The notes: generated by a model not told the origin, from the letters alone. A stretch of DNA of 56,914 nt from a bacterium (GCA_030647955.1 JAUSIQ010000030.1:1-56914); one strand, 5' to 3'. Positions 24,609 to 46,025 are shown, counted from the stretch's first letter. Translations and numbers: made by a program.

Positions 24609-24659
24609 AGAAGTATTATACCACTATAACCAAAACCCCCGCCAGAGCGAGGGTATGAG

Positions 24660-26619: not shown

Positions 26620-26632
26620 ATCAGACGGAGTG

Positions 26633-27985
26633 CTAGTCTATTATATTCTTTTTTGGTGCAGACAGAAAGCTAATATCCGCAAATGCCAAGATTAACCAGA
26701 AAATTAATTGTCCCTGCTGGAGAGTCCACAAGAAATGATCAAAGAGGCCCATAGCGAAAACAGAGAAAATCACCACTAAAAAAGACAGCTGCCCCAAATT
26801 CTGTAGCTTAGTTACTAAGATATAGCGATAAATTAAACAAAAGATGAAGGCCCCAAAAGCCGCCAATCCGATTAATCCCGTTTCGCTACTGACCAACAAA
26901 TAGATATTGTGTACTGGCTGATAAAAATAGACGGCGTAGGCCGGAAGATTTTCCAGCATATCCCAAACCAACTGTCCCACCCCCACTCCTAGCCAGGGGT
27001 TGTCTCCAGTCACCTCTTCCGCGATTTTATTATAAGCAATGCGCTGAGTAAGAGCCTGATCCTCACTGGAGATATATAGGCGAGCCTGAACCACTGGCCA
27101 ATAAACATAGGCGAAGGACAATGTCGCCATCACACTAACCATAAAAAGGGTTATCACTCTTTTTATAAAAACGGGGCCGAGGTTAAAACGTTTTCGATAG
27201 ATAAAAGACCATACTAATCGCACCACCAAACCCAAAACCCACAACCCAATCACCACCCGCGAAAAGGTAAAAAAGAATCCCCAGAGCAAAGGAACATACA
27301 CGGCCAGCACCGGCCAAAAAGACCGCGCCTTTTTTGGATAAAGGTACCAAAAGTAAAAACAAAAAATTCCCATAAAAAGCCAAGCGGCTAACACGTTAGG
27401 ATGAGGAGTGGCCCCATACGCCCGCAGAAATCTCCCCCCTTCAAACGGCACCACCGTAACTCCATAGAAATTGGTGCGTAACACTGACTCTCCCAGCCAA
27501 TGCAAACCCAAACTACGCTGGAGAAAGGCTTGGGCAATAGCCCAGATGGCCTGCAACCAGGCCGAAGCCATCATTACTTTTAAAGTCGACGGTAGATTAA
27601 AAACTTTACCCACCGAACGCGTGAGATAAAAATAAAGCGTAATGAATTCCGCCAGTTTAATTAAGCGATAAACACCCAGTCCCTTGTTATCGGCTACGCA
27701 TAAAGAGATCGCCGAGACTGCCAGAAATATCAGTAAAAACCGCTCCGCGTAATTAATTTTCTTCCAAGAAAATTCTTTCCATTTATCTCCAGAGCGTATG
27801 GCCCACAAAATGAAGAGCGCCACTATCAGAAGATCTGTTCCATACAAAAAAGCGGTGGTCCACTCATTAAATACCCCGGCTTTCGGATGAACCCACATCA
27901 CCAAAAATTTTCTAACCTGAAAAGGAACTAAAAAAACCAAGAGATAAAACATGGCTTGTTCTGCCTTAAAAACTAGATTCGTCAT
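26633..27985 (-). CDS. O-antigen ligase/polymerase-like (Wzy_C) polytopic membrane protein
   Basis: At least 10 TM segments with a large loop containing a HPHN-like motif (ATPHPNVLAAW), characteristic of the family. Confidence 0.5.
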   Translation of the reverse strand: MTNLVFKAEQAMFYLLVFLVPFQVRKFLVMWVHPKAGVFNEWTTAFLYGTDLLIVALFILWAIRSGDKWKEFSWKKINYAERFLLIFLAVSAISLCVADNKGLGVYRLIKLAEFITLYFYLTRSVGKVFNLPSTLKVMMASAWLQAIWAIAQAFLQRSLGLHWLGESVLRTNFYGVTVVPFEGGRFLRAYGATPHPNVLAAWLFMGIFCFYFWYLYPKKARSFWPVLAVYVPLLWGFFFTFSRVVIGLWVLGLVVRLVWSFIYRKRFNLGPVFIKRVITLFMVSVMATLSFAYVYWPVVQARLYISSEDQALTQRIAYNKIAEEVTGDNPWLGVGVGQLVWDMLENLPAYAVYFYQPVHNIYLLVSSETGLIGLAAFGAFIFCLIYRYILVTKLQNLGQLSFLVVIFSVFAMGLFDHFLWTLQQGQLIFWLILAFADISFLSAPKKNIID

Positions 27986-27988
27986 AAA

Positions 27989-29113
27989 TTATCTTCCGAG
28001 AGTATAGACAATACCAAAAACACTGAGGGCGATGAGACCGTACCAGAAGTACTTAGGCAGATCTAAGGAATATTCCGGAATGCGATGTCCCATTCTTTTA
28101 ACCTTGCCGTAGATAAAGATAAAAACAATCAATTGCAAACCAATGGCCACCGCTCCCGCTAGATTAATGACATTAATAAAATTATTCGCCCCTAACATAA
28201 ACATGAGCCAAGGGGGCATAACCACCAATAGCCAGGCCCGAATCTTTTTTAATTTAAAGTCGTAACGAAATGATTCCAATAACACATCTCCCAGAGTCAA
28301 AAAAGAAGTGAAGATCGCTAAAAGCCCAAAGATGGAACCAAACCAGATCACTTGTGGACCCAAGAAAGGCAGTAAGCCGGAAAATGATTCCGGAGAAGTG
28401 GCATCTCCTGAAATACCCACCACCGCAAAGGCAAAAACAGCGTAAATAATGGCGGGAATAATGGTCCCCCAAGCAATCGCTTTTTTAAGACGAAACTCTT
28501 GCCCATCTAATACCTCTCTTTGTAATACAATCGACGATCCCGATAAAGCAAACAACAGTACGCCGTAAGGCAAAAACCAAAACTCTTTATGAAAAGTAGT
28601 GAGGTTACCAAACTGGATCTGCGGTAAGCCCCAAATTAACACTAAGAACGCCCCAGCGATATAAAGGAAAAACATCCCCATATCGATCATAGAAATCATT
28701 TTCAAACCTCCGGCTACGGCTAAAGCTCCCGCCAAAAAGAAAACGAAGCTCAAGCTTCCGGAGGAAAAGTAAAACTGAAAAGAAAAGATATTCGATAAAA
28801 ATTCGCCACCGACAATAATATAAGCCAGCAGAGCAGAGTATGAGCTTAGAACAAAAGTAAAGAAAGCAACCTTTTTCCAAAACTCTCCCAAGTAGATTCC
28901 GGCATAGCCCACAATACCGTGAGAGCGATCCGTTCTTAGAATGATTTCTCCGTAGGCCAGATTAAGCAGAAGCGTAATAGTGCCTAGACCAATTAAAAAC
29001 AAAAAGCCCGTTAAGAAACCGGCCTTAGCAAACGCGAAGGGTATTCCAAAAATACCCACCCCAATAATACTGCCCATCAGTACTGCTACCGCGGAGATAA
29101 ATCTTCTGTCCAT
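27989..29113 (-). CDS. Amino-acid permease-like transporter (APC superfamily, Trp/Tyr permease-like)
   Basis: 11 TM segments and an N-terminal GSIIGVGIFGIPFAFAKAG motif. Confidence 0.55.
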   Translation of the reverse strand: MDRRFISAVAVLMGSIIGVGIFGIPFAFAKAGFLTGFLFLIGLGTITLLLNLAYGEIILRTDRSHGIVGYAGIYLGEFWKKVAFFTFVLSSYSALLAYIIVGGEFLSNIFSFQFYFSSGSLSFVFFLAGALAVAGGLKMISMIDMGMFFLYIAGAFLVLIWGLPQIQFGNLTTFHKEFWFLPYGVLLFALSGSSIVLQREVLDGQEFRLKKAIAWGTIIPAIIYAVFAFAVVGISGDATSPESFSGLLPFLGPQVIWFGSIFGLLAIFTSFLTLGDVLLESFRYDFKLKKIRAWLLVVMPPWLMFMLGANNFINVINLAGAVAIGLQLIVFIFIYGKVKRMGHRIPEYSLDLPKYFWYGLIALSVFGIVYTLGR

Positions 29114-29114
29114 A

Positions 29115-29597
29115 CTATTTTTTTACCTCCTCCTCAGCAGGTTCTTTACGACGCAAACTGCGATAAAGTAAACGCTCCCCGTTTTTTCTTTCCACGATCC
29201 AAAGTATAGTTAGAATAAAATAGACGGTCCCCGTAGCAAAAATCGCCTCTTTATAATATCCCACCCCAATCACAATTCCAATTGCCGCCACCACCCATAA
29301 AGTAGCCGCCGTGGTGAGGCCGTGAATTTTGTGGCCTTCGTGTAAAATCGCTCCCCCGCCAATAAAACCAATACCCACAATGATGTTGGAGATGAGACGG
29401 GTAGGATCGCTCATCGGATTATCTTGAAACGCCGTGATCGAAATAATCGTAATCAAAGTTGCCCCCATTGCCACCATGGCGTTAGTACGCAACCCCGCCG
29501 ACTTATGAGAACGCTCTCGCTCAAAACCAACCAAGCCTCCCACAAAAGTTGAGAAGATAATTCGAAAGAAAATTTCAGGGTATTCAAGCATGGGCAA
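29115..29597 (-). CDS. MgtC/SapB family membrane protein
   Basis: FERERSHKSAGLRTNAMVAMGA motif and the typical 160-aa, 4-5 TM layout. Confidence 0.8.
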   Translation of the reverse strand: MPMLEYPEIFFRIIFSTFVGGLVGFERERSHKSAGLRTNAMVAMGATLITIISITAFQDNPMSDPTRLISNIIVGIGFIGGGAILHEGHKIHGLTTAATLWVVAAIGIVIGVGYYKEAIFATGTVYFILTILWIVERKNGERLLYRSLRRKEPAEEEVKK

Positions 29598-29615
29598 CGA
29601 AAGGCCCGTGCATTT

Positions 29616-32012
29616 TTAGGCGGTCACTCCCGGATAGCCTCGATTGATCTTGGGAAGACGCACTGCCTTCGCTCCTTTCATTATCGGAGATTTCAAAGCA
29701 ACATTCAAGAGCTCATCCACTGTTTTTACGAACACAATTTTCATGGTCTTTTTGACCTTCTCAGGGATATCTTCAAGATCCTTGCGGTTCTCTTCCGGCA
29801 CCACAACCGTTTTTAAGCCAGCGCGATGCGCGGCAAGAATTTTTTCGCGTAATCCCCCAATCGGCAAGACTCTTCCGCGCAAAGTAATTTCTCCCGTCAT
29901 AGCCACGTCTTTTCGAACAGCTCGTCTGGTTAACAAGGAGATGATGGCAGTAATCATGGTTACGCCAGCCGAAGGTCCGTCTTTAGGAATAGCACCGGAT
30001 GGTAAGTGGACATGAATATCCTCTTGATAAAAATCTCCGGTAATCCCCCATTTTTCGGCATTAGAGCGCACGTAACTCAAAGCGGCCTGCACCGATTCAC
30101 GCATTACCTCGCCTAATCTTCCTGTGAGGATCAATTTCCCTTTTCCAGGCATTTTAGTAGCCTCCACAGACATCACCTCTCCGCCCACGGGAGTCCAAGC
30201 TAAACCAGTCGCTACCCCAATCTCATCTTGCTTTTCAATTCCTTGATGAGAATAGCGCTCCGGACCTAAATATTGGTGAAGAATTTTCGGAGTGATCACT
30301 ACTTTCTCCGCTTTGCCACCCTCCACTACTTTTCTCGTTACCTTACGGAATATTCCAGAAAGTTTTCGTTCCAATTCGCGCACTCCCGCTTCACTGGTGT
30401 GCTTATGAATGACATCCGCTACCATATTATCGGCAATACCAAGCTGGCTCGACTTTAAACCGTGCTGTTCAAATAGTTTCGGCAGTAAAAATTTTTTAGC
30501 AATCGATAATTTCTCATCTTCGGTATAACCGGAGAATTCAATAATTTCCAAGCGGTCGCGCAACGCCGGCGGAATGGTGTCTAAGCGATTAGCCGTGGTG
30601 ATAAAAATCACATCAGAAAGATCAAACGGAACTTCGAGATAATTATCCGAAAAAGAAAAATTTTGCTCCGGATCTAAGGCTTCCAGTAGAGCAGAGGATG
30701 GGTCGCCCCGAAAGTCTTGCCCGATTTTGTCAATTTCATCTAGCATAAAGACCGGGTCTTTGGCACCCGCGGTATGAATACCCTGGATAATTCTTCCGGG
30801 TAAAGCGCCGACATAAGTGCGACGATGTCCGCGAATTTCGGCTTCGTCTTTTAATCCTCCCAAAGAAACCCGCACAAATTTTCTTCCTAACGAATTGGCG
30901 ATCGAGCGGCCAATAGAAGTTTTACCGGTGCCGGGCGGCCCAAAGAAACATAAGATCGGGCCACGTACTTTACCCACCTGTTTCTGCACAGCCAAATACT
31001 CCAAAATTCTTTCTTTGGTTTTGTGCAGGCCATAATGATCTTTGTTGAGAATTTTTTCGGACTTTTTGAGATCGATCTCTCCGGTGGTCTTCAAAGACCA
31101 GGGCAATTCCACCAACCAATCCAAATAGGTTCGAAGATAAGAAACCTCCGGACTAAACATCGGCATTTTTTCCAAACGATCCAATTCCTTCAAAGCTTTC
31201 TTCTCTACCTCTTCCGGCATCTTTGACTTCTTGAGCTTTTCGCGAAGCTGATAATATTCTCCTTTTTCTCCATCCACGCCCAATTCTTTCTCGATGCTCT
31301 TGAGCTGTTCACGCAAAAAGATTTCTTTTTGCATTTTGCCTAATTGACGCTTCGTTTCTTTAACTACCTTCTTCTCGGTTTCCATAATCTCTCCCTCGCG
31401 CGCCAAGTAGAAGTTAACCTTCTTCAATGCTTCGTTAATATTGAAAGTTTCTAGAATATTTTGCTGATCATTTAACTCCAAGTTAAGATTCACAGCAATT
31501 AAGTCTACGAGCTGTTCCGGATCCTTGAGTTGATTGAGGGTGAAGAGCAAAGAGGGAAAAACCGAAGGCATAATTTTAACTTCGGTAACTCTTTTGAACT
31601 GCTCCACGACGGTGCGAATTAAAGCTTCCGACTCTACGGTATTGTTGTAGTGAAGATCGACTGGTTCAATGCGCGCCTTAAAGAAAGGCTCTTCTTGGAC
31701 AAATTCTTCTAAACGCACCCGGCCTAGACCTTCCACATCCACCTTAAAGGAACCGTCCGGTAAACGGTTAGTGGAGATAACCTTGCCAACCGTTCCAATG
31801 CGGAAGAGGTCATCTGGGGCGGTGTGGTCATGCATGTTCTTTTGAGCCACAAACACCAAAAAACCGTCTTTGGCTAAGGCGTATTCGAGACTAGCGATAG
31901 ATTTAGGGCGCTGGACTACAAGCGGAATGATGATCCGAGGGAAAAGGACCACGTTTTTAAGGGCTACCACCGGTAATTCATTCCCAACGCTGACATTGCC
32001 GATTTTGAACAT
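29616..32012 (-). CDS. lon: ATP-dependent Lon protease
   Basis: LON N-domain, Walker [10 protein letters not shown], Walker B MLDEIDK, and the protease Ser motif DGPSAG with a downstream Lys. Confidence 0.95.
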
Positions 32013-32086
32013 AATTTAACTAATTATAGAGCAACTGGCACTCTCAAGTCAAGAGTGCTAATTTTGAAGGAAAATTAGAATTAGGT

Positions 32087-32680
32087 TTAGCTTGAAACTA
32101 ACTCGTGAGGAAGAGTATCCGTCACGTTTTTTTGATCAGTTTTAATAAGTTTGGTGAGCTCTATTACAAGCTCTTTGGGATCTGCTCTATACACAATCTT
32201 CCCGGCTCCATGGCGATGAGGATCGTTTATTTTTTCTAATAATCCGGCGATCTGGTCAGTGGCTCCACAAGTACCCACCAACACTCCGATGGGCTTGTTA
32301 TCTTCCAAAGCAATCGTAAATTCGTTGAGAGTCCCAAATCCGCCACAGATAATTATAACGGCATCAGCCGACTTAGTCAGAATTAAATTTCTTCCCGAAT
32401 AGTGAAAGCCACTATAAATAATAAAATCAAAGTTTTCTGTAGGTAGTTTATAACTTTTCACATGAGCGCTGTATGAAGCGGCGGGTGAAATGCCGATACT
32501 CACTCCACCTTCTTCTGTCGCACCCTTCGCCGCAGCATAAGGAGCACCGGTGGTGGCCCCCGTGATCAAAATTCCTCCTTGTCTGGCGATTTCTCGTCCC
32601 ACTTCTTCAGCCTTGGCCATCGTATCGTTACAGCAAGTCTTTGTATCCGCCGATCCCGACACCACAAATTTATGTTTCAT
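32087..32680 (-). CDS. LOG/TIGR00725-family Rossmann-fold nucleotide-binding protein
   Basis: GGFGTLNEF (PGGxGTxxE-type) motif. Size about 190 aa. Confidence 0.6.
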   Translation of the reverse strand: MKHKFVVSGSADTKTCCNDTMAKAEEVGREIARQGGILITGATTGAPYAAAKGATEEGGVSIGISPAASYSAHVKSYKLPTENFDFIIYSGFHYSGRNLILTKSADAVIIICGGFGTLNEFTIALEDNKPIGVLVGTCGATDQIAGLLEKINDPHRHGAGKIVYRADPKELVIELTKLIKTDQKNVTDTLPHELVSS

Positions 32681-32735
32681 AGTTAAATTTTATCACCTTG
32701 AACATGCAAAGCAAGTTGGTATATCTTCGCCAACG

Positions 32736-32804
32736 AAAAAGCCCCGCCCGAGAAAGCGGCCGGATCCGTGACGATATCACGGGCGGAGCTCTCTCGGACG
32801 GGGC
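32736..32804 (-). terminator. Compound GC-rich hairpin terminator
   Basis: 12-bp stem (32741-52 / 32793-804, one mismatch) enclosing the palindrome CCGTGACGATATCACGG. A U-run follows on the minus strand. Confidence 0.5.
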
Positions 32805-32815
32805 GGACTAGAACT

Positions 32816-33139
32816 TCACTTGCGCCAGGTGTTTCTGGAAGGATCATCGGACCAGACGATCTGGTCTTCTGATTCCACCCAGTGACCACCGGCGATCATG
32901 GGAAAGTGCTGATCGTCCTTTAGCCGCGGCTGTTCGATCTTGCCCGCGGCGTAGAGATCCCGGAAGATCTTCTCCGCTTCCGGAAACCTTCTCCAATAGG
33001 ACTCGTTGTACGCAGTAACGAGACGGTCAATCTGGTCAGGGACGGCAACAGTGCCGGCGACGATCTTGTCGACCTTAGACAGGTCGACTCTGCCCTCCGC
33101 TATCTCACGAATACAGAACGACACTGAAAGTCCGATCAT
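32816..33139 (-). CDS. Hypothetical protein in a GC-rich patch
   Basis: ATG 33139 (MIGLSVSFCIREI...) has AGGAG 6 nt upstream. The tracked start at 33175 adds 12 codons. Composition is visibly GC-richer than the neighbours. Confidence 0.5.
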   Translation of the reverse strand: MIGLSVSFCIREIAEGRVDLSKVDKIVAGTVAVPDQIDRLVTAYNESYWRRFPEAEKIFRDLYAAGKIEQPRLKDDQHFPMIAGGHWVESEDQIVWSDDPSRNTWRK

Positions 33140-33250
33140 GCAACTCTCCTCTTGAAAATTGGTCTTTTTATTCAACTCTATATACTTTAATTATAGCATA
33201 TTTTTGATAAAAATGCAAGTCAAAAAAGGGCCGTTTTTGGACTTTTTTAT

Positions 33251-34633
33251 CTACAGGTCAAATTGCTGATCTTGAATGGGGACGATGGCTTCGACTTTGA
33301 GTTTATTTTTAACAATGTCGGCTAAGGCTTTACCAGAGTTTTCTTCGCCTTGCACCATAAAAACTTTTTTGAGCTTGCCGGCTTTGTTGGCTTGGGTAAT
33401 CCAATCTACTAAAGCGGGCTGATCGGCATGAGCCGAGTAACCCCCAATCCCCTTCACCAAACAGCGCACTGGAACCATCTCACCAAAAATGGAAACCTCT
33501 TTAGCCCCTTCTAAGATTTTTCTACCCAAGCTGCCCTCTACTTGATAACCGACAAAAACAATCGCATTGCGCGGATCGCTTAAGTAGCGGCGTTCGTGAT
33601 GCAAAATTCTTCCCCCCACGGACATACCCGAACCGGCAATAATCACCTTGGGAGGTTCAACCGCATTAATACTTTTGGATTGTTCAACGGCGTCTGTAAA
33701 ACGTAAACAAGAGAAATCAAAAATACTGCGACCTTCGCTTAAAAAATGGGAGCGGGCATTTTCGTTTAAGTAGTGCTGATAGTGGTTGTAAACTTCGGTC
33801 ATTTTGTGTGCCAAGGGGCTGTCGATAAACACCGGCATCATCGGCACGGATTCATTTTGAAAAAGCTGGTGCAGTTCAAACAAAATTTCTTGAGTACGTT
33901 CAATCGCAAAAGACGGCACCAACATCGTGCCTTTACTCTTCACCACATGCTCAAGAACCTGCCTGAAGATTTGACTACGACTGTCTTTGTCTTCATGAGT
34001 ACGACTGCCATAAGCCGAATCGATGACTACATAATCAGCATCTTCCACAAATTCCTTATCGGGCAAAAGGAGTGACGGAGAATTACCCAAATCCCCCGTA
34101 AAGTATATTTTTCTTCGCTCACCCTCTTCTTCGTATTCAAAGCAGATAATTCCCGAACCGAGAACATGCCCGGAATTGTAGTAGGTGGCCGTCACCCCGG
34201 GAGCTAGTGGTAAAGATTGGTGGTATTTAACCGTTTCGATCAAATCCAAAGCGGCATCCACTTCGCCTAATTCGTATAAAGGCGGATGGCCATCGCTTTT
34301 AGCCTCTTCCGCGATATGGTTCCAACTATCCGGAAGGGCGCGCAACATTAAATTACGGGTCGGCTCCACCACATAAATTTTCCCCCGAAATCCTTCTTTG
34401 TATAATTTCGGCACTCGCCCAACGTGATCGGCATGACTATGAGTAATGAAAAGGTAATCAATAGTAGAAGCATCATATCCAAATGGTGCGTAATTCAACC
34501 CTTCCACGAATTTAGAACCCTGAAACAATCCGCAATCCACTAAAACGCGCAGATCTTTTCCCCCCGCCTTAAATTCAAGCAAATAGTTTGCCCCCGTCAC
34601 CGACATCGCCCCGCCGTAAAAAGTAAGTTTCAT
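33251..34633 (-). CDS. MBL-fold beta-CASP ribonuclease (CPSF/RNase J-like)
   Basis: HSHADHVG (HxHxDH), a beta-CASP region and the C-terminal GYSAHAD motif. Confidence 0.85.
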   Translation of the reverse strand: MKLTFYGGAMSVTGANYLLEFKAGGKDLRVLVDCGLFQGSKFVEGLNYAPFGYDASTIDYLFITHSHADHVGRVPKLYKEGFRGKIYVVEPTRNLMLRALPDSWNHIAEEAKSDGHPPLYELGEVDAALDLIETVKYHQSLPLAPGVTATYYNSGHVLGSGIICFEYEEEGERRKIYFTGDLGNSPSLLLPDKEFVEDADYVVIDSAYGSRTHEDKDSRSQIFRQVLEHVVKSKGTMLVPSFAIERTQEILFELHQLFQNESVPMMPVFIDSPLAHKMTEVYNHYQHYLNENARSHFLSEGRSIFDFSCLRFTDAVEQSKSINAVEPPKVIIAGSGMSVGGRILHHERRYLSDPRNAIVFVGYQVEGSLGRKILEGAKEVSIFGEMVPVRCLVKGIGGYSAHADQPALVDWITQANKAGKLKKVFMVQGEENSGKALADIVKNKLKVEAIVPIQDQQFDL

Positions 34634-34635
34634 AG

Positions 34636-35481
34636 TTAAAAGATTGCTACAGATACAAGATAGCCGACAATGCTCATCATGGCAATCGGCGGAAGCGCGG
34701 CCATGGGACGACGCTGTTTTTGAGTAACGAACAAAAGATGCGTGACAAACAAACCACCCAAAGAAAAGAGCGTTACTACCAAAGCATGCGCCAAAGAAAT
34801 TTTAAGCGCCGCAATACTTAAAACCAAAGGTAAAACAATGTCTCCACTGCCCAAAATCATAAAATGATCACCGGGCTTAACCCGTTCAATCTTTTCTCTG
34901 AATCCGGAAAATTCCATGGGAATAATGAATCCGAAGATAGCCCGAGAAGCAACCATGCCCTCGGCCATCTTTACCATGTGCTTACTAACATATACCGCGA
35001 ATATATCGTAGAAAGATAGAATCAATAAGGCCCAAACAGCTACGAGCGGCGTAATACTTAAACCAATTACTAATCCGATCCCCGCAATCGCCAACATCAC
35101 TGCTACATTTTGCAGCATCACACTACGCACCACAATCATTAACACCACTAGTAAGATAGTTAGGATCAAAGAAAGGATGGGAGAAAAGAAAGCCGAGAAG
35201 ATCACCTGTGTTCCACCAATAATCACGATGAAAAAGAAAAGTTTAAAAACTATCTGCGTCATCCGCGTTCTTTTGATAACGGCCCAGATGAAAAATCCGA
35301 GCAGAAGAGCAGAGACAATGATATCGAGTGGCGTCAGCCGAAATGAAACCGCCGGAGTGCTTAAAGGGGAATTGGCTAACTCAAAAAGATACCGCTGGGC
35401 TACAATAATACCCAGGAGTTGTGTAGCTCCGAATAAAGCCAACTCCTTTAACCACAGCTGAATTTTTAGATTGCTAATCAA
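34636..35481 (-). CDS. Presenilin/signal-peptide-peptidase-like GxGD intramembrane aspartyl protease (A22-like)
   Basis: Polytopic, with YD (SFYDIFAVY) and GxGD (LGSGDIVLP) in adjacent TM helices, plus a PAL-like AALPPI near the C-terminus. Confidence 0.6.
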   Translation of the reverse strand: MISNLKIQLWLKELALFGATQLLGIIVAQRYLFELANSPLSTPAVSFRLTPLDIIVSALLLGFFIWAVIKRTRMTQIVFKLFFFIVIIGGTQVIFSAFFSPILSLILTILLVVLMIVVRSVMLQNVAVMLAIAGIGLVIGLSITPLVAVWALLILSFYDIFAVYVSKHMVKMAEGMVASRAIFGFIIPMEFSGFREKIERVKPGDHFMILGSGDIVLPLVLSIAALKISLAHALVVTLFSLGGLFVTHLLFVTQKQRRPMAALPPIAMMSIVGYLVSVAIF

Positions 35482-35490
35482 GTTTTAAAT

Positions 35491-35949
35491 TTACCGAACA
35501 GTAATCACCCCGGATTCGTTGGGATTACGCTCATTGTGATAGCCAAAGATTCCGGGGGTATTGAAAGTGTAAGAGAAAAATCCCCTAGAAAGAATGTCGC
35601 CATCGCTAGTAAAACCAAGTAGATCGTTGTGGGCCGGATGCGGGTCAGAGATCACCCAAATCGGCATATTGCTGGTATTTTGAAATCTTACGGAATCTCC
35701 CGCGTGAATGCGTAGGTTCGTCGGACTAAATACCCCGCCACCATAGAAAACCGAGTAGACACGCGGAGGACGACTAGAGGGTTGGTTAGTAGCAGCGGTG
35801 GTATCGTGGTAATTACTGTTTTTACTAAAATACAAAATCGCCACCCCCATCAGCATCATGATTAAAACAATAAGCGCCCAAGCTAAACCCTTGCTTTCTC
35901 CTTGGTCGGACTTATCTAACAATTTTTCCTTCAATTTAAACCCGCCCAT
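35491..35949 (-). CDS. Membrane-anchored cupredoxin-like domain protein (no Cys copper ligand)
   Basis: N-terminal TM followed by the pattern F.P..L.I..GD.V.F.N......H.. and a C-terminal G.I.V. Confidence 0.4.
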   Translation of the reverse strand: MGGFKLKEKLLDKSDQGESKGLAWALIVLIMMLMGVAILYFSKNSNYHDTTAATNQPSSRPPRVYSVFYGGGVFSPTNLRIHAGDSVRFQNTSNMPIWVISDPHPAHNDLLGFTSDGDILSRGFFSYTFNTPGIFGYHNERNPNESGVITVR

Positions 35950-35974
35950 TAACCCAATTATACAATAAACTTAA

Positions 35975-35998
35975 TAAAAAAACACCCTTCGGGGGTGT
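35975..35998 (-). terminator. Intrinsic terminator
   Basis: ACACCC-loop-GGGTGT with an A-run on the plus strand, which is a U-run on the minus strand, directly after the stop at 36004. Confidence 0.6.
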
Positions 35999-36003
35999 CT
36001 GAC

Positions 36004-36507
36004 CTACTTATTCAAAAAATCATTTAATGCTGTCACCAAGACTCTGGGCAAGCCGTGCCGCTTGTCTTTTTCATTAAAAGGAACGGAAACAATATCCAAC
36101 ACTACTTTCTGATCTTCTTCCTTTAGCAGAATATGCTTTCCATCAAATTTTATAACCGATTCGTGAATCCTCCATTCCCTGTCTGACCGATTAAAACCAT
36201 TTTGGGCATCTTTGATAAAGTTCAAATCCAAGGTAAGAAGTATTATCCGGAAATCAACGCCGCTACTTAATACATTTCTAATGTGATAATTCTTAGGCGA
36301 AAAAATGACCCGCCGAAGATAAAGCACTACCTGCCAATCTTTTTTCTTCTTTTCAGAATTAGGAAAAGGAAACACAAAAAGCTCAAAATCATTAAAATTG
36401 CCCCACCGTTTGAATGCACTTCCCACCGCTTTATTCAGCCCGGCAATATTCTCATCGAGAAAAACGAACACAGGTATGGGAGCATCTTCTTTCCCGAGTG
36501 GAGACAA
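36004..36507 (-). CDS. Hypothetical protein (167 aa)
   Basis: ORF with its own terminator. No recognisable motif. Confidence 0.45.
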   Translation of the reverse strand: MSPLGKEDAPIPVFVFLDENIAGLNKAVGSAFKRWGNFNDFELFVFPFPNSEKKKKDWQVVLYLRRVIFSPKNYHIRNVLSSGVDFRIILLTLDLNFIKDAQNGFNRSDREWRIHESVIKFDGKHILLKEEDQKVVLDIVSVPFNEKDKRHGLPRVLVTALNDFLNK

Positions 36508-39587: not shown

Positions 39588-41582
39588 GTGTTCAAACTAA
39601 GCTCAAAATTCAAGCCTGCCGGAGACCAACCTCAAGCTATTGAGAAGCTTTCTAGTGGTCTAAAAAAGGGCTTCAAGCACCAAACTCTCTTGGGCGTAAC
39701 CGGATCGGGTAAAACCTTCTCTATCGCCAACGTCATCACCAAAATCAATAAACCCACTCTGGTCATTTCTCCCAATAAAACTTTAGCCGCCCAGCTCTAC
39801 CAGGAGTTCAAAGAATTCTTCCCCAAAAACTCCGTCCACTATTTTGTAAGTTACTATGATTACTACCAGCCCGAAGCCTACATTCCCCACACCCGCACTT
39901 ATATCGAAAAAGATTCTAGAATTAATGAAGAGATCGACCGTCTGCGCCACGCCGCTACCCAGGCCCTTTTAACCCGTGACGACGTCATTATCGTCGCCTC
40001 CGTTTCTTGTATTTACAACCTCGGTTCCCCGGAAGAGTATAAAAAATTGAGCTTAGACATTTTTCAAGGCCAAAAATTGACCGACACCCAGCTTTATGAA
40101 AGCTTGGCTCGCCTGCAGTATTCTCCGGACATCGAATTAAAGCGCGGTAAGTTCCGCAAGACTCGCGAAGAATTTGAAATCGTCCCGGCCACCGGCGATA
40201 AAATTTTACGCATCAAAATTTTAAACGGTAAAGTTAAAAAAATTGAAGTAGCTGAAAATGTTAACTTTGACGCCCTGGATTTTAATGATTTGAAATATCA
40301 CAAACTGATCGAGGCCAAAATCTTCCCAGCTAAATATTGGATCGCTCCTAATACCCAAATTGAGCTCGCCCTTTCTAATATCAAGGCCGAGATGGAAAAG
40401 CACACTAAGAAATTAAAGAAGGAGGGAAAATCCGAAGAAGCTTATCGCTTAAAAGAGCGCACCGTCCACGATATTGCCATGATCAGACAAACTGGCTACT
40501 GCCACGGTATTGAAAACTACTCCTCTCACTTGGATTTCCGCAAACCCGGTGCCCCTCCCTTTACTTTGATCGACTTTTTTAAAACGAAGAAAGACTTTTT
40601 GACTATCGTCGATGAGTCTCACATTACCATTCCTCAAGTAAGTGGCATGCACAGCGGAGACTTTTCCCGTAAAACCACTTTGGTAAATCACGGCTTTCGT
40701 TTGCCTTCGGCTTTAGACAACCGTCCGCTTAGATTTGATGAGTTTAACGAAAGAATCAACCAAACTATTTATGTTTCCGCTACTCCGAAGGTCTATGAGT
40801 TAAAAAAATCCGGAACCAAGGGGCTAGTGGAACAAGTGGTACGCCCCACCGGTTTACTCGACCCCAACGTCGAAATTATTAAAAGCGAAAACCAAATCCC
40901 GCATTTAATAGAAGAAATTAAGAAAAGACGCGAGAAGAAGCAGAGAGTTTTGGTTACTACTTTGACGAAAAGAATGGCCGAGGACTTGTCGGAATATTTG
41001 TCTGAAGCGGGTATTAGTGTAAACTATATCCACTCGGAAATTAAAACCCTTCAGCGCTTAGAAATTTTGCATGACTTACGCTTAGGCAATTACGATGTCA
41101 TCGTCGGAGTAAACTTGCTCCGAGAAGGATTGGACTTGCCCGAAGTTTCTTTGATCGCTATTTTAGACGCGGATAAAGAAGGATTTTTACGTAACGCCAC
41201 TACCCTTATTCAAACCATGGGCCGAGCCGCCCGTAATATCGACGGCCACATTATCATGTACGCTAACAAAGTCACCGGGTCGATGGATGCTGCCATAAAA
41301 GAAACGATGCGTCGTCGTCGTATTCAAGAACAATACAATATGAAACACAAAATTACCCCTATCACTATTTCCAAAGCCGTCATTAAAAGCGACTTACCCG
41401 CCTCTTCTGCTCCCAAAGCTACTTACACGGGCTTTGATTTGTCTCAGCCTTCTTCCAAACAATTCTTAAAAAATAGATTGACTGCACTACAAAAAGAAAT
41501 TGACAAAGCGGTCAAGAAGTTAGAATTCGAAAGAGCGATGATCATTCGAGAACAGATTAAAGAGTTAAAGAAGCAGCTTTAA
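39588..41582 (+). CDS. uvrB: Excinuclease ABC subunit B
   Basis: GVTGSGKTF Walker A, DESH box, beta-hairpin region and a C-terminal UVR domain (FERAMIIREQIKELK). GTG start. Confidence 0.95.
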   Translation: MFKLSSKFKPAGDQPQAIEKLSSGLKKGFKHQTLLGVTGSGKTFSIANVITKINKPTLVISPNKTLAAQLYQEFKEFFPKNSVHYFVSYYDYYQPEAYIPHTRTYIEKDSRINEEIDRLRHAATQALLTRDDVIIVASVSCIYNLGSPEEYKKLSLDIFQGQKLTDTQLYESLARLQYSPDIELKRGKFRKTREEFEIVPATGDKILRIKILNGKVKKIEVAENVNFDALDFNDLKYHKLIEAKIFPAKYWIAPNTQIELALSNIKAEMEKHTKKLKKEGKSEEAYRLKERTVHDIAMIRQTGYCHGIENYSSHLDFRKPGAPPFTLIDFFKTKKDFLTIVDESHITIPQVSGMHSGDFSRKTTLVNHGFRLPSALDNRPLRFDEFNERINQTIYVSATPKVYELKKSGTKGLVEQVVRPTGLLDPNVEIIKSENQIPHLIEEIKKRREKKQRVLVTTLTKRMAEDLSEYLSEAGISVNYIHSEIKTLQRLEILHDLRLGNYDVIVGVNLLREGLDLPEVSLIAILDADKEGFLRNATTLIQTMGRAARNIDGHIIMYANKVTGSMDAAIKETMRRRRIQEQYNMKHKITPITISKAVIKSDLPASSAPKATYTGFDLSQPSSKQFLKNRLTALQKEIDKAVKKLEFERAMIIREQIKELKKQL

Positions 41583-41638
41583 ACATTTTTCCATAAGCTG
41601 CCGCAGAGCCTTTCAAAGCAATAGTTAGCCAATCTTTA

Positions 41639-42331
41639 ATGAATTTGAAACCGGGAATCTATAATATATATAAACCGGCCGGGCCGACTTCGCATGACAT
41701 CGTTGACCAAGTGCGGAAGATCAGCGGCGAAAAGAGAGTGGGGCACGCCGGAACGCTCGATCCTTTTGCGGAAGGAATTTTAATTATCGCCATCGGCCGC
41801 GAGTACACCAAAAAACTCGACCAATTTTTAAAACAAGACAAAACTTATCACGCCACTTTGCGACTAGGCGCTGTTTCTGACACACATGACCTCACCGGAA
41901 AAATTTACCCCGTCAAATCCGGCGAAGCCGGAACCGCCAAGCGGTTATTTGACAGGGTGAATCCGCCCACCAGAAAACAAATCACCGAAGCTTTAAAAAA
42001 GTTTAAAGGAGAAATCGAGCAAACTCCCCCCTCTTTTTCGGCCATCAAGCTCGCCGGCCAGAGATCTTATATATTGGCTCGAAAAGGAATTACTCCCAAA
42101 CTCCAGCCCCGAAAAGTAAAAGTTTACACCCTCAAAATTGTAAAATACCGCTGGCCTCATTTAGAAATTGAAACTAAAGTCTCCTCTGGCACCTACATCC
42201 GCGCCCTCGCCCACGACCTTGGCCAAACTCTCGGCACCGGCGCTTATCTGGAAAAACTAATTCGCACTAAGATTGGAAGATTTAAATTGGACAATTCCCT
42301 TGTTCTTGACAAAATTAATATAATACGTTAA
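41639..42331 (+). CDS. truB: tRNA pseudouridine(55) synthase TruB
   Basis: Catalytic-Asp motif GHAGTLDPFAEG. The short form lacks a full PUA domain. Confidence 0.88.
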   Translation: MNLKPGIYNIYKPAGPTSHDIVDQVRKISGEKRVGHAGTLDPFAEGILIIAIGREYTKKLDQFLKQDKTYHATLRLGAVSDTHDLTGKIYPVKSGEAGTAKRLFDRVNPPTRKQITEALKKFKGEIEQTPPSFSAIKLAGQRSYILARKGITPKLQPRKVKVYTLKIVKYRWPHLEIETKVSSGTYIRALAHDLGQTLGTGAYLEKLIRTKIGRFKLDNSLVLDKINIIR

Positions 42332-42367
42332 TCTAAGCATAGTTTCATACTTAAAACAGGAGCGTGC

Positions 42368-42703
42368 ATGGATATCCTATTGGGCCTTTTAGACTTGACC
42401 ATGTTCGTTATTGGCGTGTCTACGGTAGGGCGTTATTTCATGGAAGGTCCCTACGAAGAAATCACATGGTGTCCGGCGTGCGGCGACTGGCTATGGAAAA
42501 GTAACGACCCCGCCCTTGAGGACTTTGACAGCGAGAGACGCCGAGCAAATGCAAGATGTCAGTGTGGTGATTGGATAAAATGTTCACACTGTAATTTTAC
42601 ACATCATCCCCAAGAAAAGTTTTGCCATGCCACAGGCAAAAATATTCTAGTTGACACATACAACGAAACTACTTTAATGCAGCAGCCTACATTACCGAGC
42701 TAA
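42368..42703 (+). CDS. Membrane-anchored Cys-rich (zinc-ribbon-like) hypothetical protein
   Basis: GGAG 6 nt upstream, an N-terminal TM, and CPAC..CQC..CSHC..C cysteine pairs. A terminator overlaps the stop. Confidence 0.5.
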   Translation: MDILLGLLDLTMFVIGVSTVGRYFMEGPYEEITWCPACGDWLWKSNDPALEDFDSERRRANARCQCGDWIKCSHCNFTHHPQEKFCHATGKNILVDTYNETTLMQQPTLPS

Positions 42704-42716
42704 ACTCGGTTTTTTT
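42695..42716 (+). terminator. Intrinsic terminator (CCGAG-ctaaa-CTCGG-T7)
   Basis: The stop codon lies in the loop, and a 7-nt T-run follows. Confidence 0.7.
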
Positions 42717-42731
42717 ATCCACAGGCGAATC

Positions 42732-42759
42732 TTGATTTATAAATCAGCCTTGTTAATAT
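42732..42759 (+). promoter_or_regulatory. Sigma70-like promoter TTGATT-N16-TAATAT
   Basis: It sits between two terminators with no ORF downstream, so it would drive the sRNA candidate. Confidence 0.5.
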
Positions 42760-42765
42760 ATTCAA

Positions 42766-42975
42766 GCGGGTTTGGAAGAAAGTAAAGACGATTCCCTTGG
42801 CCGGCACAATGGGAAGAGCAAGGGGTGATGAGGCCGGTGGCCTCTAAGTACACCTGATCCGGTGACTCGCGGCCCAAGCTATGCGAAGCCCGAACACCGT
42901 TGCTAAACCAAACTCGTCCAGTTCTTATTTATCCTTTCTCCTTTCCTCGCCCTGGATTTCCAGGGCTTTTTTTTA
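42766..42975 (+). ncRNA. Unassigned about 210-nt sRNA candidate with its own promoter and terminator
   Basis: Closing helix GGGUUUGG/CCAAACUC, internal hairpins (CCCUUG/CAAGGG; GAGGCC/GGCCUC), a CU-rich tail, and the terminator GCCCUGG-auuu-CCAGGGC-U9. Confidence 0.45.
42949..42975 (+). terminator. Intrinsic terminator of the sRNA candidate
   Basis: 7-bp GC stem plus a 9-nt T-run. It works only on the plus strand. Confidence 0.7.
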
Positions 42976-43029
42976 TTTTTCATCCATTATATCTCAACTC
43001 GCCTCATCGCTTTCTTCGGAAAGAAGAAT

Positions 43030-43376
43030 CTCCGCTCCCCCACCCCTTTCTTGATCCTCCTTCGGTTTCAAATCCTCTGTCCATTTTGTTGTAAAGCCAG
43101 ATGAAAAGGACGAGCCTGGTCGAGCCCTCCCCTCATCCTTTGTCATCTGGCCTTTACTTCCAAAATGGCCAGGGATTATATCACCCTCAGTCGGATTAGC
43201 GGCGAAAGGGATGGGGTCGCTTTCACTAGCGACGATAGGAGATGAGGGTCACCTAAAATTTCTGGAATCAAATATTGATTCGAATGCAGCTGATGAGCGC
43301 AGTCGAGGATCAGTGGAGAGGAGTAGGTGGTGGAGCGATAAGGTTTTTTGCTGGAGAAAGGGGTGGGGCCGCGGAG
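43030..43376 (+). ncRNA. Unassigned about 350-nt structured RNA candidate closed by a 20-bp helix (strand tentative)
   Basis: P1 is 43030-43051 / 43355-43376 and P2 is 43052-43059 / 43305-43312 (8 bp perfect). There is a 15-bp hairpin at 43096-43151, further hairpins at 43182-43249 and 43265-43281, and C(UUCG)G tetraloops on the plus strand. Confidence 0.4.
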
Positions 43377-43393
43377 GTCTAACTGAACGTGAC

Positions 43394-43422
43394 TTGCATA
43401 AATACAGATAATTTGTTATTAT
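43394..43422 (+). promoter_or_regulatory. rpsT promoter TTGCAT-N17(TGt)-TATTAT, 10 nt from the ATG
   Basis: Good -35, spacer and extended -10. No SD precedes ATG 43433. Confidence 0.55.
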
Positions 43423-43432
43423 CATAGCCGAT

Positions 43433-43702
43433 ATGCCAATTACTCAATCCGCCGAAAAGGCGTTGCGACAATCTAAAAAGAGACACGTCGAGAACCTCCG
43501 TTTTAAGAGGAATTTTAAAGCGGCCATCAAAGAATTTAGAGACGAGCTCGGTGCCAAGAATTTCGAAAAAGCCAAGAGCCTATTACCGAAAGTTTACCAA
43601 GCCGTTGATAAAGCCACCAAGAAGAACGTCCTCAAAAAGAACACTGCCAGCCGATATAAATCTCGTCTCACTAAATCTCTCGCCGTCGCCAGTGCAAAAT
43701 AA
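43433..43702 (+). CDS. rpsT: 30S ribosomal protein S20
   Basis: 89 aa, basic, with a typical S20 N-terminus (MPITQSAEKALRQSKKR). Confidence 0.92.
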   Translation: MPITQSAEKALRQSKKRHVENLRFKRNFKAAIKEFRDELGAKNFEKAKSLLPKVYQAVDKATKKNVLKKNTASRYKSRLTKSLAVASAK

Positions 43703-43803
43703 TCTTTTAGCTTCGCTGTGCCACCGCTAAAGCTTTAGCGACACGCGATCGGACAAAATGTAATATAAGAATACCCCATTTTGCTCCTCGCTATGTAAAA
43801 TAA
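43702..43803 (-). repeat. SD-ATG hairpin module, copy B (with a 32-nt net palindromic insertion)
   Basis: The reverse complement reads TTATTTTAcatAGCGAGGAGCAAAATGG-N13-TTACATTTTGTCCGA-[34 nt]-GAAGCTAAAAGAT. It starts at the rpsT stop codon. Confidence 0.75.
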
Positions 43804-43831
43804 AAAACACCCCGCTCAATGGGGTGTTTTT
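43802..43831. terminator. Bidirectional terminator between the rpsT region and ftsW
   Basis: A5-CACCCC-gctcaat-GGGGTG-T6. Confidence 0.7.
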
Positions 43832-44928
43832 TAACTTTGTTGCTTAGCAATACTAGCAACGATTCCGAGTGAACCTAATAATACAGCCAGGGAAGTGCCC
43901 CCATAACTAATAAAGGGCAAAGGAATACCGGTTAGCGGCACTAAACCAGTGATCGCCGCGATATTGATAAAGGCCTGACTGGCGATCCAAACTGCTACCC
44001 CCATAACAAATAACTGGGCAAAACGGTCGGGTGTATTTTTAGCAATACGGACCAAATGGAATATCAACAAAAGAAACACCGTAATGAGCGCTCCGGCTCC
44101 GATCAGACCCAGCTCTTCTACTAAAATAGCGAAAATGGAATCCCCCACCGGCTCCGGCAGAAAGCCACTTTTCTGCTCGCTACGTCCAAAGCCCACCCCC
44201 CACCACCCCCCCCTTCCGATGGCCAAAAGGGCTTGGTTGATGTGATAAGAAATACCTTGCGGATCACCGGCACGATTAATAAAAGCCAGTAAACGATTGA
44301 ACTGATAGTGGGAAAAAATGGCCATAGAAAAAAACCCTACCAGAATTACTCCAGCCAGCGAGAGAAAGAAAGAAGTTTTTCCGCCGGCAAAAAAGAAGAT
44401 GGAAAGAGTAATAATAGTGACAATGCCCAAGGTCCCCATATCCGGCTGTAACACCAACAATAGGGCGGCAAAGAAAAATACGACCAAAAATGGAATTAGC
44501 GAATAGGACCAAACTTTTTCTTTATAACTTCGCCCTCCAAACCAAGCGGCTAAATAGAGAATCATGGCCAACTTTAAAATCTCTCCGGGCTGGAAGCTAA
44601 ATAATCCCACATCCAGCCAGCGCGTTGCTCCTTTGGCAGCTAACCCAAGTTGAGGAACAAAAATCGCCATCATAAAAGAGAGGGCGACTAATAAAAAGGG
44701 CAGGGCCACTTTTTTCCAAAACTTATAGTTAATTTTTGAAAATACAAAATAAGCCAGTCCACCGAGAAGCGCTCCGGCCGTGAGCTGGTGCCAAAAATAA
44801 TATAATGCTGATCCGAATTTTTTTTGTCCCTCAATTACTCCTGCCGAAGAAAGAAGCAGCAAACCGAAACCAACCAAAATAAAAACCAGGATAGTGAGAG
44901 TTTTTGTCTCTTTGTTAGATGAGGTCAT
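43831..44928 (-). CDS. ftsW: SEDS-family peptidoglycan glycosyltransferase (FtsW/RodA)
   Basis: 10-TM SEDS layout and C-terminal PLTGIPLPFISYGGTS. It is adjacent to mraY. Confidence 0.88.
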   Translation of the reverse strand: MTSSNKETKTLTILVFILVGFGLLLLSSAGVIEGQKKFGSALYYFWHQLTAGALLGGLAYFVFSKINYKFWKKVALPFLLVALSFMMAIFVPQLGLAAKGATRWLDVGLFSFQPGEILKLAMILYLAAWFGGRSYKEKVWSYSLIPFLVVFFFAALLLVLQPDMGTLGIVTIITLSIFFFAGGKTSFFLSLAGVILVGFFSMAIFSHYQFNRLLAFINRAGDPQGISYHINQALLAIGRGGWWGVGFGRSEQKSGFLPEPVGDSIFAILVEELGLIGAGALITVFLLLIFHLVRIAKNTPDRFAQLFVMGVAVWIASQAFINIAAITGLVPLTGIPLPFISYGGTSLAVLLGSLGIVASIAKQQS

Positions 44929-44945
44929 TTCTAAACCCTCTATAA

Positions 44946-46025
44946 TTACTTAACGATGTGGTGAAAAAGTAGTGCCGGTATTTTCGAATCGACTAAAAAA
45001 ACAATAATTCCCAAAATCGCCCCAACCGCCGAGATCATCCAAAAGCGCATCGTCACCTGCGTCTCAGGCCAGCCCAGGGCTTCGAAATGGTGATGAATCG
45101 GCGTAGAAAGAAAAATCTTCTTTTTCCGTACTTTTTTGGAAATCATCTGGACGATCACCGACAAAGATTCGATTAACATAACCACGGCAATCAGTGGTAA
45201 AAGTAAGAAAGTATTGGTGAGCATCGCCACTACCCCCAAGACAAAGCCAAGTGACATTACTCCTGTATCTCCCATAAAGAATTTGGCAGGAAAAATATTG
45301 AACCATAAAAAGGCCACCAAAGCGCCCAGAATTCCAGCAATCATTACCACTAGATCAATTCTCTGCTGTACGAAAGCAATCGCTCCTAGGGCGGCAAAAG
45401 AGAAGAGAAAAACTCCCCCTACTAACCCATCAAGACCATCGGTTTCATTAGCAGAGAAAGCCGTGGCCACGATCACCAAGATAAAAATTGGAATATACCA
45501 TATTCCCACCATTACATCTCCCAAGAATGGCACATTAATAAAATCCCACCCGAGTTTAAAATAGAACCACCACGCTCCTCCAGCCGCGACAATGGCATAA
45601 AGAATCAATCTTTGGCTCATGCGTAAACCGCCGCGCTTAATAATACCAAAGAGATCATCAGCCATACCCACCAAACCAGCCACGATTAGAAAACCAATCG
45701 GCAAGAAAGTTTGACTGCGCGAAAGGAAATTTAAGTGCCCAATAAATCTGTCGGGCAATATCTTGGCAAAGATCCAAAATGCTAAAGCGAGTAGGGCTAC
45801 CGTAAACCAGATAATTACTCCGCCCATCGTGGGCGTCCCCTCTTTTTTCTTATGTAAAGAGTTGAAAATCGGTGCTCCACTTTTCTCAATTTCCTTCCCC
45901 GGGCGAAAATATTTTGTCAACACCTTCATCCAAAGCGGCGTAATCAAAATCGCCACGAAAAAAGAGATCGTGGCGACGGTCAGAATTTTAACCACATTTA
46001 CTACATTGAAAATTTGTTCGTACAT
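44946..46025 (-). CDS. mraY: Phospho-N-acetylmuramoyl-pentapeptide transferase MraY
   Basis: TPTMGG, NETDGLDGL, and HHHFE motifs. Confidence 0.93.
   Translation of the reverse strand: MYEQIFNVVNVVKILTVATISFFVAILITPLWMKVLTKYFRPGKEIEKSGAPIFNSLHKKKEGTPTMGGVIIWFTVALLALAFWIFAKILPDRFIGHLNFLSRSQTFLPIGFLIVAGLVGMADDLFGIIKRGGLRMSQRLILYAIVAAGGAWWFYFKLGWDFINVPFLGDVMVGIWYIPIFILVIVATAFSANETDGLDGLVGGVFLFSFAALGAIAFVQQRIDLVVMIAGILGALVAFLWFNIFPAKFFMGDTGVMSLGFVLGVVAMLTNTFLLLPLIAVVMLIESLSVIVQMISKKVRKKKIFLSTPIHHHFEALGWPETQVTMRFWMISAVGAILGIIVFLVDSKIPALLFHHIVK

Follow-up and report, generated by a model that had tools for sequence, protein, structure and literature searches.

Short, non-coding, intergenic hairpins are known from repetitive extragenic palindromes and bacterial interspersed mosaic elements (REP/BIME), from miniature inverted-repeat transposable elements (MITEs, e.g. 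Correia elements), and from the repetitive hairpin-forming elements of organelles; these occur in more than one copy, are patchy among related genomes, are co-transcribed with their neighbours, and can nest. 6S RNA (RF00013 and relatives) is a rod of ~190 nt in which a large internal loop separates a closing stem from a long apical stem; it can occur as a pair of paralogues and be processed from a longer transcript, and its apical loop is not the conserved part. The stems cut by RNase III between cistrons and around ribosomal RNA have an end helix of ~15-22 bp with small internal loops, lie between co-oriented genes, and keep their structure while their sequence is free. The sibling small RNAs RsaE, RoxS, and the LhrC family carry C-rich loops that pair with ribosome-binding sites, and occur in more than one copy per genome. 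Each of these systems shares features with element A, a rod-like structure of ~190 nt at 43032-43222 (plus strand) in a groundwater Patescibacteria genome and a member of a dispersed family. It forms the larger part of the stretch 43030-43376, upstream of the gene for ribosomal protein S20 (rpsT), within 56,914 nt of analyzed DNA (GCA_030647955.1 JAUSIQ010000030.1:1-56914; hereafter the window).

The sequence-only reading that singled out this stretch had interpreted it as one new multi-branched RNA of ~350 nt. That interpretation was partly right, and every helix it listed was found in the sequence. The arms 43030-51 and 43355-76 (helix P1), 22 nt each, are 91% complementary, and TGATCCTC (43052-59) is the exact reverse complement of GAGGATCA (43305-12; helix P2). 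In a long hairpin, 43097-43110 is paired with 43136-43150, and the stem continues as far out as 43071/43177. GUCGCU and AGCGAC pair at 43216-21/43228-33, the palindrome GAATCAA-ATA-TTGATTC lies at 43265-81, a UUCG hairpin occupies 43010-23, and C(UUCG)G lies at 43060-65. The ACCCTCA helix is also present, at 43183-89 and not, as had been given, at 43182-88. Strong folding of the stretch was confirmed as real and far beyond chance: the 347 nt reached -150.2 kcal/mol on the plus strand (z -6.1, equalled by 0 of 100 shuffles) and -143.2 kcal/mol on the minus strand (z -8.6, no shuffle equal). The excess stability came almost wholly from 43030-43222 (z -6.6 plus, -8.7 minus, the values of element A); the remainder, 43223-43345, folded alone at z -0.8 and -1.2, respectively.

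The best reading of the candidate is a composite of three pieces: element A, a truncated element B (43223-43341, plus strand), and a duplicate of the 3' arm of A (43353-43376, plus strand). The evidence comes from contigs of other groundwater sequencing runs aligned to the window (X1 denotes the source sample, other X numbers other runs). In a public index of sequencing runs, the whole stretch occurred only in X1, while three sampled 31-letter words recurred in eight other groundwater metagenomes from four other studies. Short contigs from other runs matched 43031-43196 at ~85-93% and 43228-43341 at 88-100%; the edges of homology were sharp (~43031-38 on the left, ~43338-41 on the right), the flanks were unrelated, and no match was found to 42710-43030 or to the small upstream open reading frame (ORF) described below as ORF111. 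Contigs with the 5' part continued for a further 197 nt (X2) and 227 nt (X9) without a match to B, and contigs with the 3' part carried 85-155 nt upstream without a match to the 5' part. The source sample yielded the same separation. One X1 contig of 7507 nt (depth 10.9) aligned only to 43032-43169 and 43190-43222 before passing into unrelated DNA, and another of 951 nt (depth 11.0) aligned only to 43239-43341. Because these depths equal that of the window's own contig (10.3), second copies of A and B are suggested to reside in the same genome.

A and B are two separate conserved non-coding elements that here lie side by side. The claim of strong structure conserved elsewhere was borne out by the fold statistics and the contigs of other runs, whereas the claim of a single RNA closed by P1 and P2 failed under the very test proposed in that reading: the halves were found on separate contigs and neither helix is conserved. 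Since P2 pairs A with B, it cannot be a conserved feature where the two lie apart, as they do in other samples and in the second source-sample copies, with unrelated sequence between the partner units. The 3' arm of P1 (43355-76) was reached by no contig of other runs and by no second X1 copy; it lies outside everything conserved in relatives and is a local copy, 85% identical over 20 nt, of 43201-20. When a 21-mer of the conserved core was used to scan metagenomes, the only match (L082) was due to chance. Of three scans of viral sequences, none yielded more than a chance match, in coding DNA of high GC content (L096), and blastn against phages and plasmids gave no match.

Element A is organized as a closing helix, a long hairpin, and a linker, all given on the plus strand. 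Because the second A copy ends at 43222, its own closing helix is taken to be 43034-43050 paired with 43204-43220 (15 of 17 pairs); the 3' strand reads GAAAGGGAUGGGGUCGC, in place of which the relative in X9 has GAAAGGGGCGGGGAGC. The conserved core is the long irregular hairpin at 43071-43177 (hairpin A). Its apical region (43112-43137) consists of GAGCCUGGUCG followed by a C/U-rich stretch, CCCUCCCCUCAUC, and a conserved 3' linker, AUCACCCUCAGUCGGAU, occupies 43180-43196.

A-related contigs were found in X2, X3, X4, X6, X8, and X9, and two distant homologues were found in related loci (numbered with an L). The first lies in the uvrB-truB gap of L085/L086 (2836-2952; nhmmer E 2e-9; 87.8 bits with covariance model R1), filling that gap to ~10 nt from each gene in sense orientation. 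The second lies in the ruvA/uvrB gap of L087 (7716-7829, other strand; R1 28.4 bits, rough E 5e-4), just upstream of ruvA and on the strand of ruvA. A 13-mer in the apical loop, GGUCGAGCCCUCC, is identical in the window and L085, and an alternative loop form, GGUCGAAACCAUCCC, is common to L087 and the X2/X4 variants; loop sequence is thus conserved while the stems vary. The linker aligns with CUAACGCUCGGUCAUGU in L085, with GCACCGCUCGGCCAUAU in L087 (by eye), and with UAUCACCCUCGCUCGGAU in X2, and a shared linker motif reads CACCCUCAGUCGG in the window, AACGCUCGGUC in L085, and ACCGCUCGGCC in L087.

The long hairpin, already described in the sequence-only reading, showed clear compensatory changes. 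In an alignment of four hairpins (A2: the window, L085 minus an extra side hairpin, and two rebuilt variants), 96.3% of cells were paired and 10 pairs had changed on both sides; none of 500 shuffles reached 10 double changes, and sliding the partners gave at most one. Compensations were also seen within single contigs (43100 G>A with 43147 C>T; 43108 G>T with 43138 C>A), and 43099 A>C was accompanied by an inserted G on the opposite side. Perfect hairpins of unrelated sequence interrupt A after position 43122 (X2, X6, and X9) and after position 43104 (second X1 copy), bringing to four the distinct hairpin inserts that A has accepted. Each member of the family is closed by its own helix of ~15-22 bp, with sequences unrelated between copies; the inner ends are CUUUUC/GAAAAG in L085 and CUUUCC/GGAAAG in L087. 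On the strength of these comparisons, the structure of A is judged to be under selection. Conserved loops, stems that covary and differ in length, and closing helices of free sequence typically mark a nucleic acid that functions in folded form, and A is a good candidate for a new family of structured RNA or hairpin elements in Patescibacteria.

Element B is conserved in sequence rather than in fold; a composite full-length B reached a z of only -0.5. In the eight other runs and the second X1 contig, its matches begin at 43228-43239 and end at 43286-43341 (88-100%), with unrelated flanks, so that the block is free-standing elsewhere. Its ultra-conserved 51-mer (43237-43287, plus strand) contains the 7-3-7 palindrome GAATCAAATATTGATTC (43265-81). 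This core is identical in the eight other runs (five studies in all) as judged by the three exactly shared 31-letter words, and a contig of X3 differed from it at 0 positions. In relatives of B, a further strand, AATCAATATTTCCAGAATTTTAAGG, lies upstream and is a predicted partner of the conserved CCTAAAATTTCTGGAATCAAATATTGATT; since this strand is missing in the window, the window's B is read as truncated at its 5' end, at the junction with A. Beyond B, a spacer with a T-run (43342-43352, plus strand; GGTTTTTTGCT), not conserved in relatives, leads into the duplicated arm. No relative carries such an arm, which lies beyond B. The striking 22-bp closing helix arises because this duplicate gives the 5' arm of A a second, stronger partner; in all, the 5' arm has three alternative partners, at 43204-20, 43328-39, and 43355-76.

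Known families did not account for the stretch. Rfam returned no match at gathering score for the whole window, and permissive scans (E <= 10; 42300-43800, 43020-43230, and 43200-43390), like those made on related loci, returned only chance matches of microRNA and small nucleolar RNA models to the hairpin. ARAGORN found neither a transfer RNA nor a transfer-messenger RNA (tmRNA) in the window. No ORF over the stretch, including 43211-43411, matched Pfam, and the 118-codon open frame that contains it (43055-43408) had no relative among 5.8 billion proteins, in agreement with the prior judgement that these frames are non-coding. Given the lack of Rfam, ARAGORN, Pfam, and protein matches, the stretch is non-coding, and current models of RNase P RNA, tmRNA, 6S RNA, riboswitches, and introns do not describe it. 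The first two had already been set aside in the sequence-only reading; neither RNase P RNA models (P4, CR-I, CR-V) at gathering score or E <= 10, nor a tRNA-like end with a tag frame in ARAGORN or Rfam, was found here. The site is intergenic and matched neither group I nor group II introns in Rfam. Compared by eye with known features, a T-box, a hammerhead (CUGAUGAG at 43290-97), a tRNA-like T-arm, and a group I core did not fit, again with no Rfam match, and a rolling-circle single-strand origin (TAGCGA at 43227-32) did not fit either. The literature searched held nothing on such elements in this bacterial group.

What A does is a separate question, on which we consider the chances evenly divided: judging from sequence comparison, A may be a structural module at the RNA level, either part of the transcripts of adjoining genes or a stable small RNA in its own right. 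The A family comprises rod-like intergenic elements of ~190-250 nt in Yanofskybacteria-like Patescibacteria. Its members keep the long irregular hairpin by compensatory change, with an apical motif (GGUCGAGCCCUCCC or GGUCGAAACCAUCCC), then a C/U-rich stretch, and a 3' linker, tolerate additional hairpins in the stem or at its apex, and are closed by a copy-specific helix of ~15-22 bp. Anatomy, conservation, covariation, and the separation of A from B are observations; transcription, strand, processing, and partner belong to the proposal. Acting as RNA, whether co-transcribed or as a small RNA, A would fold into a self-contained rod whose paired ends would form a double-stranded stalk of the type cut by RNase III, and its C/U-rich apical loop may be recognised by a protein or by a purine-rich RNA of Shine-Dalgarno-like sequence. 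In size, the closing helix corresponds to the substrates of RNase III. Known RNase III sites differ in needing no conserved apical loop, and A is a putative substrate only. The C/U-rich apical motif, with CCCUCCCCUC unpaired at the end of a stable hairpin, is similar to the loops through which some small RNAs pair with ribosome-binding sites. RsaE, LhrC, and RoxS are the nearest in kind; those are ~100 nt in length, have their own promoter and terminator, and belong to Firmicutes, an unrelated clade. An RNA role is favoured because of the conservation pattern, the sense-strand placement in L085 and L087, and a few G-U replacements that are allowed only on that strand.

Several points weigh against this proposal. 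The stretch was found in no RNA sequencing run. For A and both homologues, the opposite strand gives a fold more stable by 3-18 kcal/mol, and the G-U pairs that favour the plus strand are few (L085 and the X2/X8 variants). The plus-strand call of the sequence-only reading is plausible for the 3' part, whereas the 5' part may be read from either strand; by folding energy, A and B give contradictory answers. Two of the four sequences in the covariation set were rebuilt from difference tables of Logan contigs, which do not capture differences close to the ends of the aligned pieces, and the extra hairpin was cut out of the L085 sequence before the test. The arms of a palindrome can also stay complementary through template switching during replication, without selection on RNA, and so mimic covariation. 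The placement of second copies in the same genome is deduced from depth alone. Finally, the occupation of three different gaps of one gene cluster, the finding of two or more copies at equal depth in each of three samples, and the direct repeat flanking the A/B junction fit mobile DNA as well.

The main alternative, which we regard as rather unlikely on balance, is that A, B, and the small inserts are selfish palindromic DNA, non-autonomous mobile or recombining elements of the MITE, REP, or repetitive hairpin-forming type. Such elements would settle at safe sites between genes, with a preference for the loops of hairpins already present, terminators among them. The target would supply a different closing helix to each copy, hairpins would come to nest in one another, and complementarity would be kept at the level of DNA, by recognition of single-stranded hairpins or by template-switch correction, with no RNA function. 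This would account for presence or absence at three gaps of one conserved cluster, here inside a lineage-specific insertion of 1.1 kb, for the two A variants at equal depth in X1, X2, and X6, for the 20-nt direct repeat (43201-20/43353-72) that flanks B, and for the unrelated perfect hairpins nested at the apex or in the stem. It would also account for a single 26-nt hairpin that L090 and L091 share in different surroundings, for the T-run that follows the closing helix in L089 and L090 as if a terminator loop had been invaded, and for the roughly equal folding of both strands.

Other features of A speak against this alternative. Copies differ at their termini and conservation is highest in the central loop, the reverse of what is known for elements recognised by terminal inverted repeats: the closing arms in the window, L085, and L087 are unrelated save for the inner CUUUYC/GRAAAG, so no common terminal inverted repeat of the MITE kind was found. 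The stems covary around conserved unpaired motifs, as they do in functional RNAs. Very few copies were observed, with one A in the 57-kb window, and in X4, the deepest sample, the distinct flanks were few (5', approximately two; 3', one). The ends of A bear no evident target duplication. No transposase, integrase, or reverse transcriptase was found among the neighbouring genes (scanned, or named by synteny) or among 20 scanned ORFs of 1-21871, a scan outside which lie ~20 ORFs located in 21999-36507 and beyond 48566; with truB, ORF111, rpsT, ftsW, and mraY as neighbours, no reverse transcriptase of the retron kind adjoins the element. In L089, L090, and L097, moreover, an element is orthologous and fixed in place with a variable apex, which is the behaviour of a functional RNA stem.

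A more ambitious version of the RNA proposal, which we hold to be unlikely, would make A a new class of Patescibacteria non-coding RNA: a stable rod, 6S-like or the scaffold of an RNA-protein particle, present in one or two copies per genome and read via its C/U-rich apical loop, with B as a separately encoded, ultra-conserved partner. Here GAUGAGGG of B (43240-47) would pair with the loop sequence CCCUCAUC of A (43130-37). The two are complementary, but both are invariant, so that covariation is uninformative.

By analogy with known structures, A might instead be a 6S-like RNA proper, a reading we consider improbable: a ~190-nt rod that would bind the RNA polymerase holoenzyme as a mimic of an open promoter, with two paralogues, cut from operon transcripts. 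Length and stems fit, with a closing helix at 43034-57/43193-220, an internal loop of 13 x 15 nt (43058-70/43178-92) bearing the conserved 3' motif, and the apical stem at 43071-43177; two copies occur at equal depth, and the L085 copy is intergenic with no evident promoter or terminator of its own. The literature searched reports no 6S RNA for the group, and neither the window nor the L085, L001, L084, and L083 loci yielded one. In its disfavour, no 6S family of Rfam matched up to E = 10, either for element A alone (211 nt) or for the L087 homologue; the internal loop, or bubble, is partly paired in the predicted fold; and the best-conserved part of A is the apical loop, the part that 6S RNA does not conserve. 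Its patchy distribution, missing from the same neighbourhood in ~10 related genomes and at different gaps in three, is also unlike that of a housekeeping RNA.

Two readings we consider very improbable. The single multi-branched RNA of ~350 nt closed by P1 (43030-51/43355-76) and P2 (43052-59/43305-12) can claim that both helices are present as the strongest pairings of this copy and that the minimum-energy fold uses P1; set against this are the 3' arm of P1, conserved nowhere and a duplicate of A's own arm, the unlinked A and B in X2, X9, and the second X1 copies, and the A-like elements of L085 and L087 without any B. A cis-regulatory rpsT leader, either an autoregulatory site for S20 or an attenuator switching the partners of the 5' arm, would suit a same-strand location 57-94 nt ahead of rpsT, the three alternative partners of the 5' arm, and the T-run at 43344-49, but the conserved rpsT promoter lies downstream of the element, A was not found upstream of rpsT in any of 12 related loci, relatives have a different conserved RNA before rpsT, A-like elements elsewhere precede truB and ruvA, and B relatives have other downstream sequences.

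Upstream of the stretch lie uvrB (39588-41582) and truB (41639-42331), and then ORF111 (42368-42703, plus strand), encoding a small Cys-rich orphan protein of 111 codons with an N-terminal hydrophobic stretch and four Cys pairs; it had no Pfam match and no relative among 5.8 billion proteins, and is followed by a terminator-like site at 42694-42710. Between ORF111 and the stretch is an orphan region of ~210 nt (region 1; 42742-42975, plus strand), which runs from a promoter-like TTGATT-16-TAATAT to a strong terminator-like site (GCCCTGG..CCAGGGC + T8; 42949-66), is not unusually structured (z -1.1 to -1.8), and had no match in the related loci or in other runs. Downstream, rpsT (43433-43702, plus strand; Pfam PF01649, E 5e-20) is preceded by a promoter-like site read by eye, TTGCAT-17-TATTAT (43394-43422, plus strand), which lies outside the element and downstream of it, as the sequence-only reading had placed it. 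A promoter consensus scan did not list this site. By eye, L085 and L094 have the same TTGCA(T/A), a spacer of ~16-17 nt, and TAATAT ahead of rpsT, and L091 and L097 have TTGCAA at the corresponding position. Beyond rpsT, ftsW and mraY lie on the opposite strand.

The nearest TruB proteins in databases, from Candidatus Yanofskybacteria, are at most 70% identical. A search of GTDB genomes for rpsT synteny returned one useful relative (L001), the others being Acidobacteria and similar. Twelve distinct related loci were compared (L001, L083-L085, L087, L089-L094, and L097). In all 12, uvrB-truB is kept, and rpsT followed by ftsW-mraY is found wherever the contig continues; the truB-rpsT gap ranges from -10 nt to ~700 nt, at times with a small unnamed ORF. 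None of the 12 holds anything resembling 42710-43390, from which we conclude that the stretch sits in a lineage-specific insertion of ~1.1 kb. Several genomes carry, between truB and rpsT, small ORFs of 75-192 codons that differ from one another and match no Pfam family (L087 10723-11019; L089 10837-11277; L090 10777-11355; L092 954-1181; window 42368-42703). A 9-mer resembling a DnaA box, TTATCCACA (TTATCCACC in L094), was observed just 3' of truB, or in the window 3' of ORF111, in three genomes (window 42714-42722; L084 3646-3654; L094 1365-1373), and in L094 it is part of a perfect 19-bp hairpin. A replication origin was considered and rejected: there is one perfect DnaA-box 9-mer (42714-22), with no cluster of boxes and no reversal of cumulative GC skew in 40000-46000.

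Other structured elements were encountered in the same gaps. Those flanking uvrB and truB in L001, L085, L087, L089, L090, and L094 folded at z -5.9 to -12.6, as compared to +0.5 to -3.7 for other gaps of the window. In relatives they are very often rods closed by long helices of unrelated sequence (L001 2099-2271; L087 7645-7886; L089 7571-7826 and 9822-10000; L090 7558-7825 and 9821-10000; L094 1363-1732; L097 3327-3551), and the orthologous uvrB-truB element of L089, L090, and L097 carries three unrelated perfect apical hairpins. Just 5' of the rpsT promoter in four Yanofskybacteria-like genomes, and absent from the window, is a conserved, structured sequence of ~170 nt that ends in a terminator-like hairpin, here termed RNA-X (..CCAGGAGAUUCACCAUUGGGCCUGG..CCGUGCCUGGGAACGGGCAUGAAG..GAAUGGCC..; L085/L086 3653-3880; L091 6755-6930; L094 1429-1603, equivalent to L095 1585-1759; L097 4353-4490). 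It shows at least one compensatory change (CCAGG/CCUGG vs UCAGG/CCUGA). The L085 copy matched nothing in Rfam; RNA-X may be a leader linked to S20 or a small RNA.

Elsewhere in the window, a short element of the form UCUUUUAGCUUC..CGGACAAAAUG..loop..CAUUUUGCUCCUCGCU was observed between stop codon and terminator in sense orientation, once behind rpsT (43703-43800) and once behind a class II aminoacyl-tRNA synthetase gene (14395-14460, minus strand). The two copies are 85% identical over 55 nt. It occurs on many contigs, in both orientations and at depths of up to 131x, in all four of the other runs examined (X2, X6, X8, X9). Rfam has no such element, and none of the related loci retrieved contained it. 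Inverted repeats of 47 nt (12691-12737/13249-13295; 83% complementary) flank a 172-codon ORF on the minus strand (12727-13245) with a PaaX central/Cas2-like domain, and a perfect 16-bp palindrome with a 2-nt spacer (23204-23237) lies in an intergenic gap of 328 nt with moderate structure (z -3.0/-3.7).

A general caution follows from the composite nature of the stretch: a local duplication that joins two unrelated elements can create a striking long-range helix. Patescibacteria have tiny genomes with little spare DNA, and to our knowledge almost no non-coding RNA has been described from them. Element A offers a concrete case, with covarying stems and conserved loops, that is recognised by no library of RNA families, and the second block, with its 51 identical bases in groundwater samples of five studies, stands beside it. 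Large folded intergenic elements appear to be a regular feature of this clade, with A as one conserved family among them; the rods in the uvrB, truB, and rpsT gaps, be they regulators, processing sites, or selfish hairpins, are a part of these small genomes that annotation currently misses.

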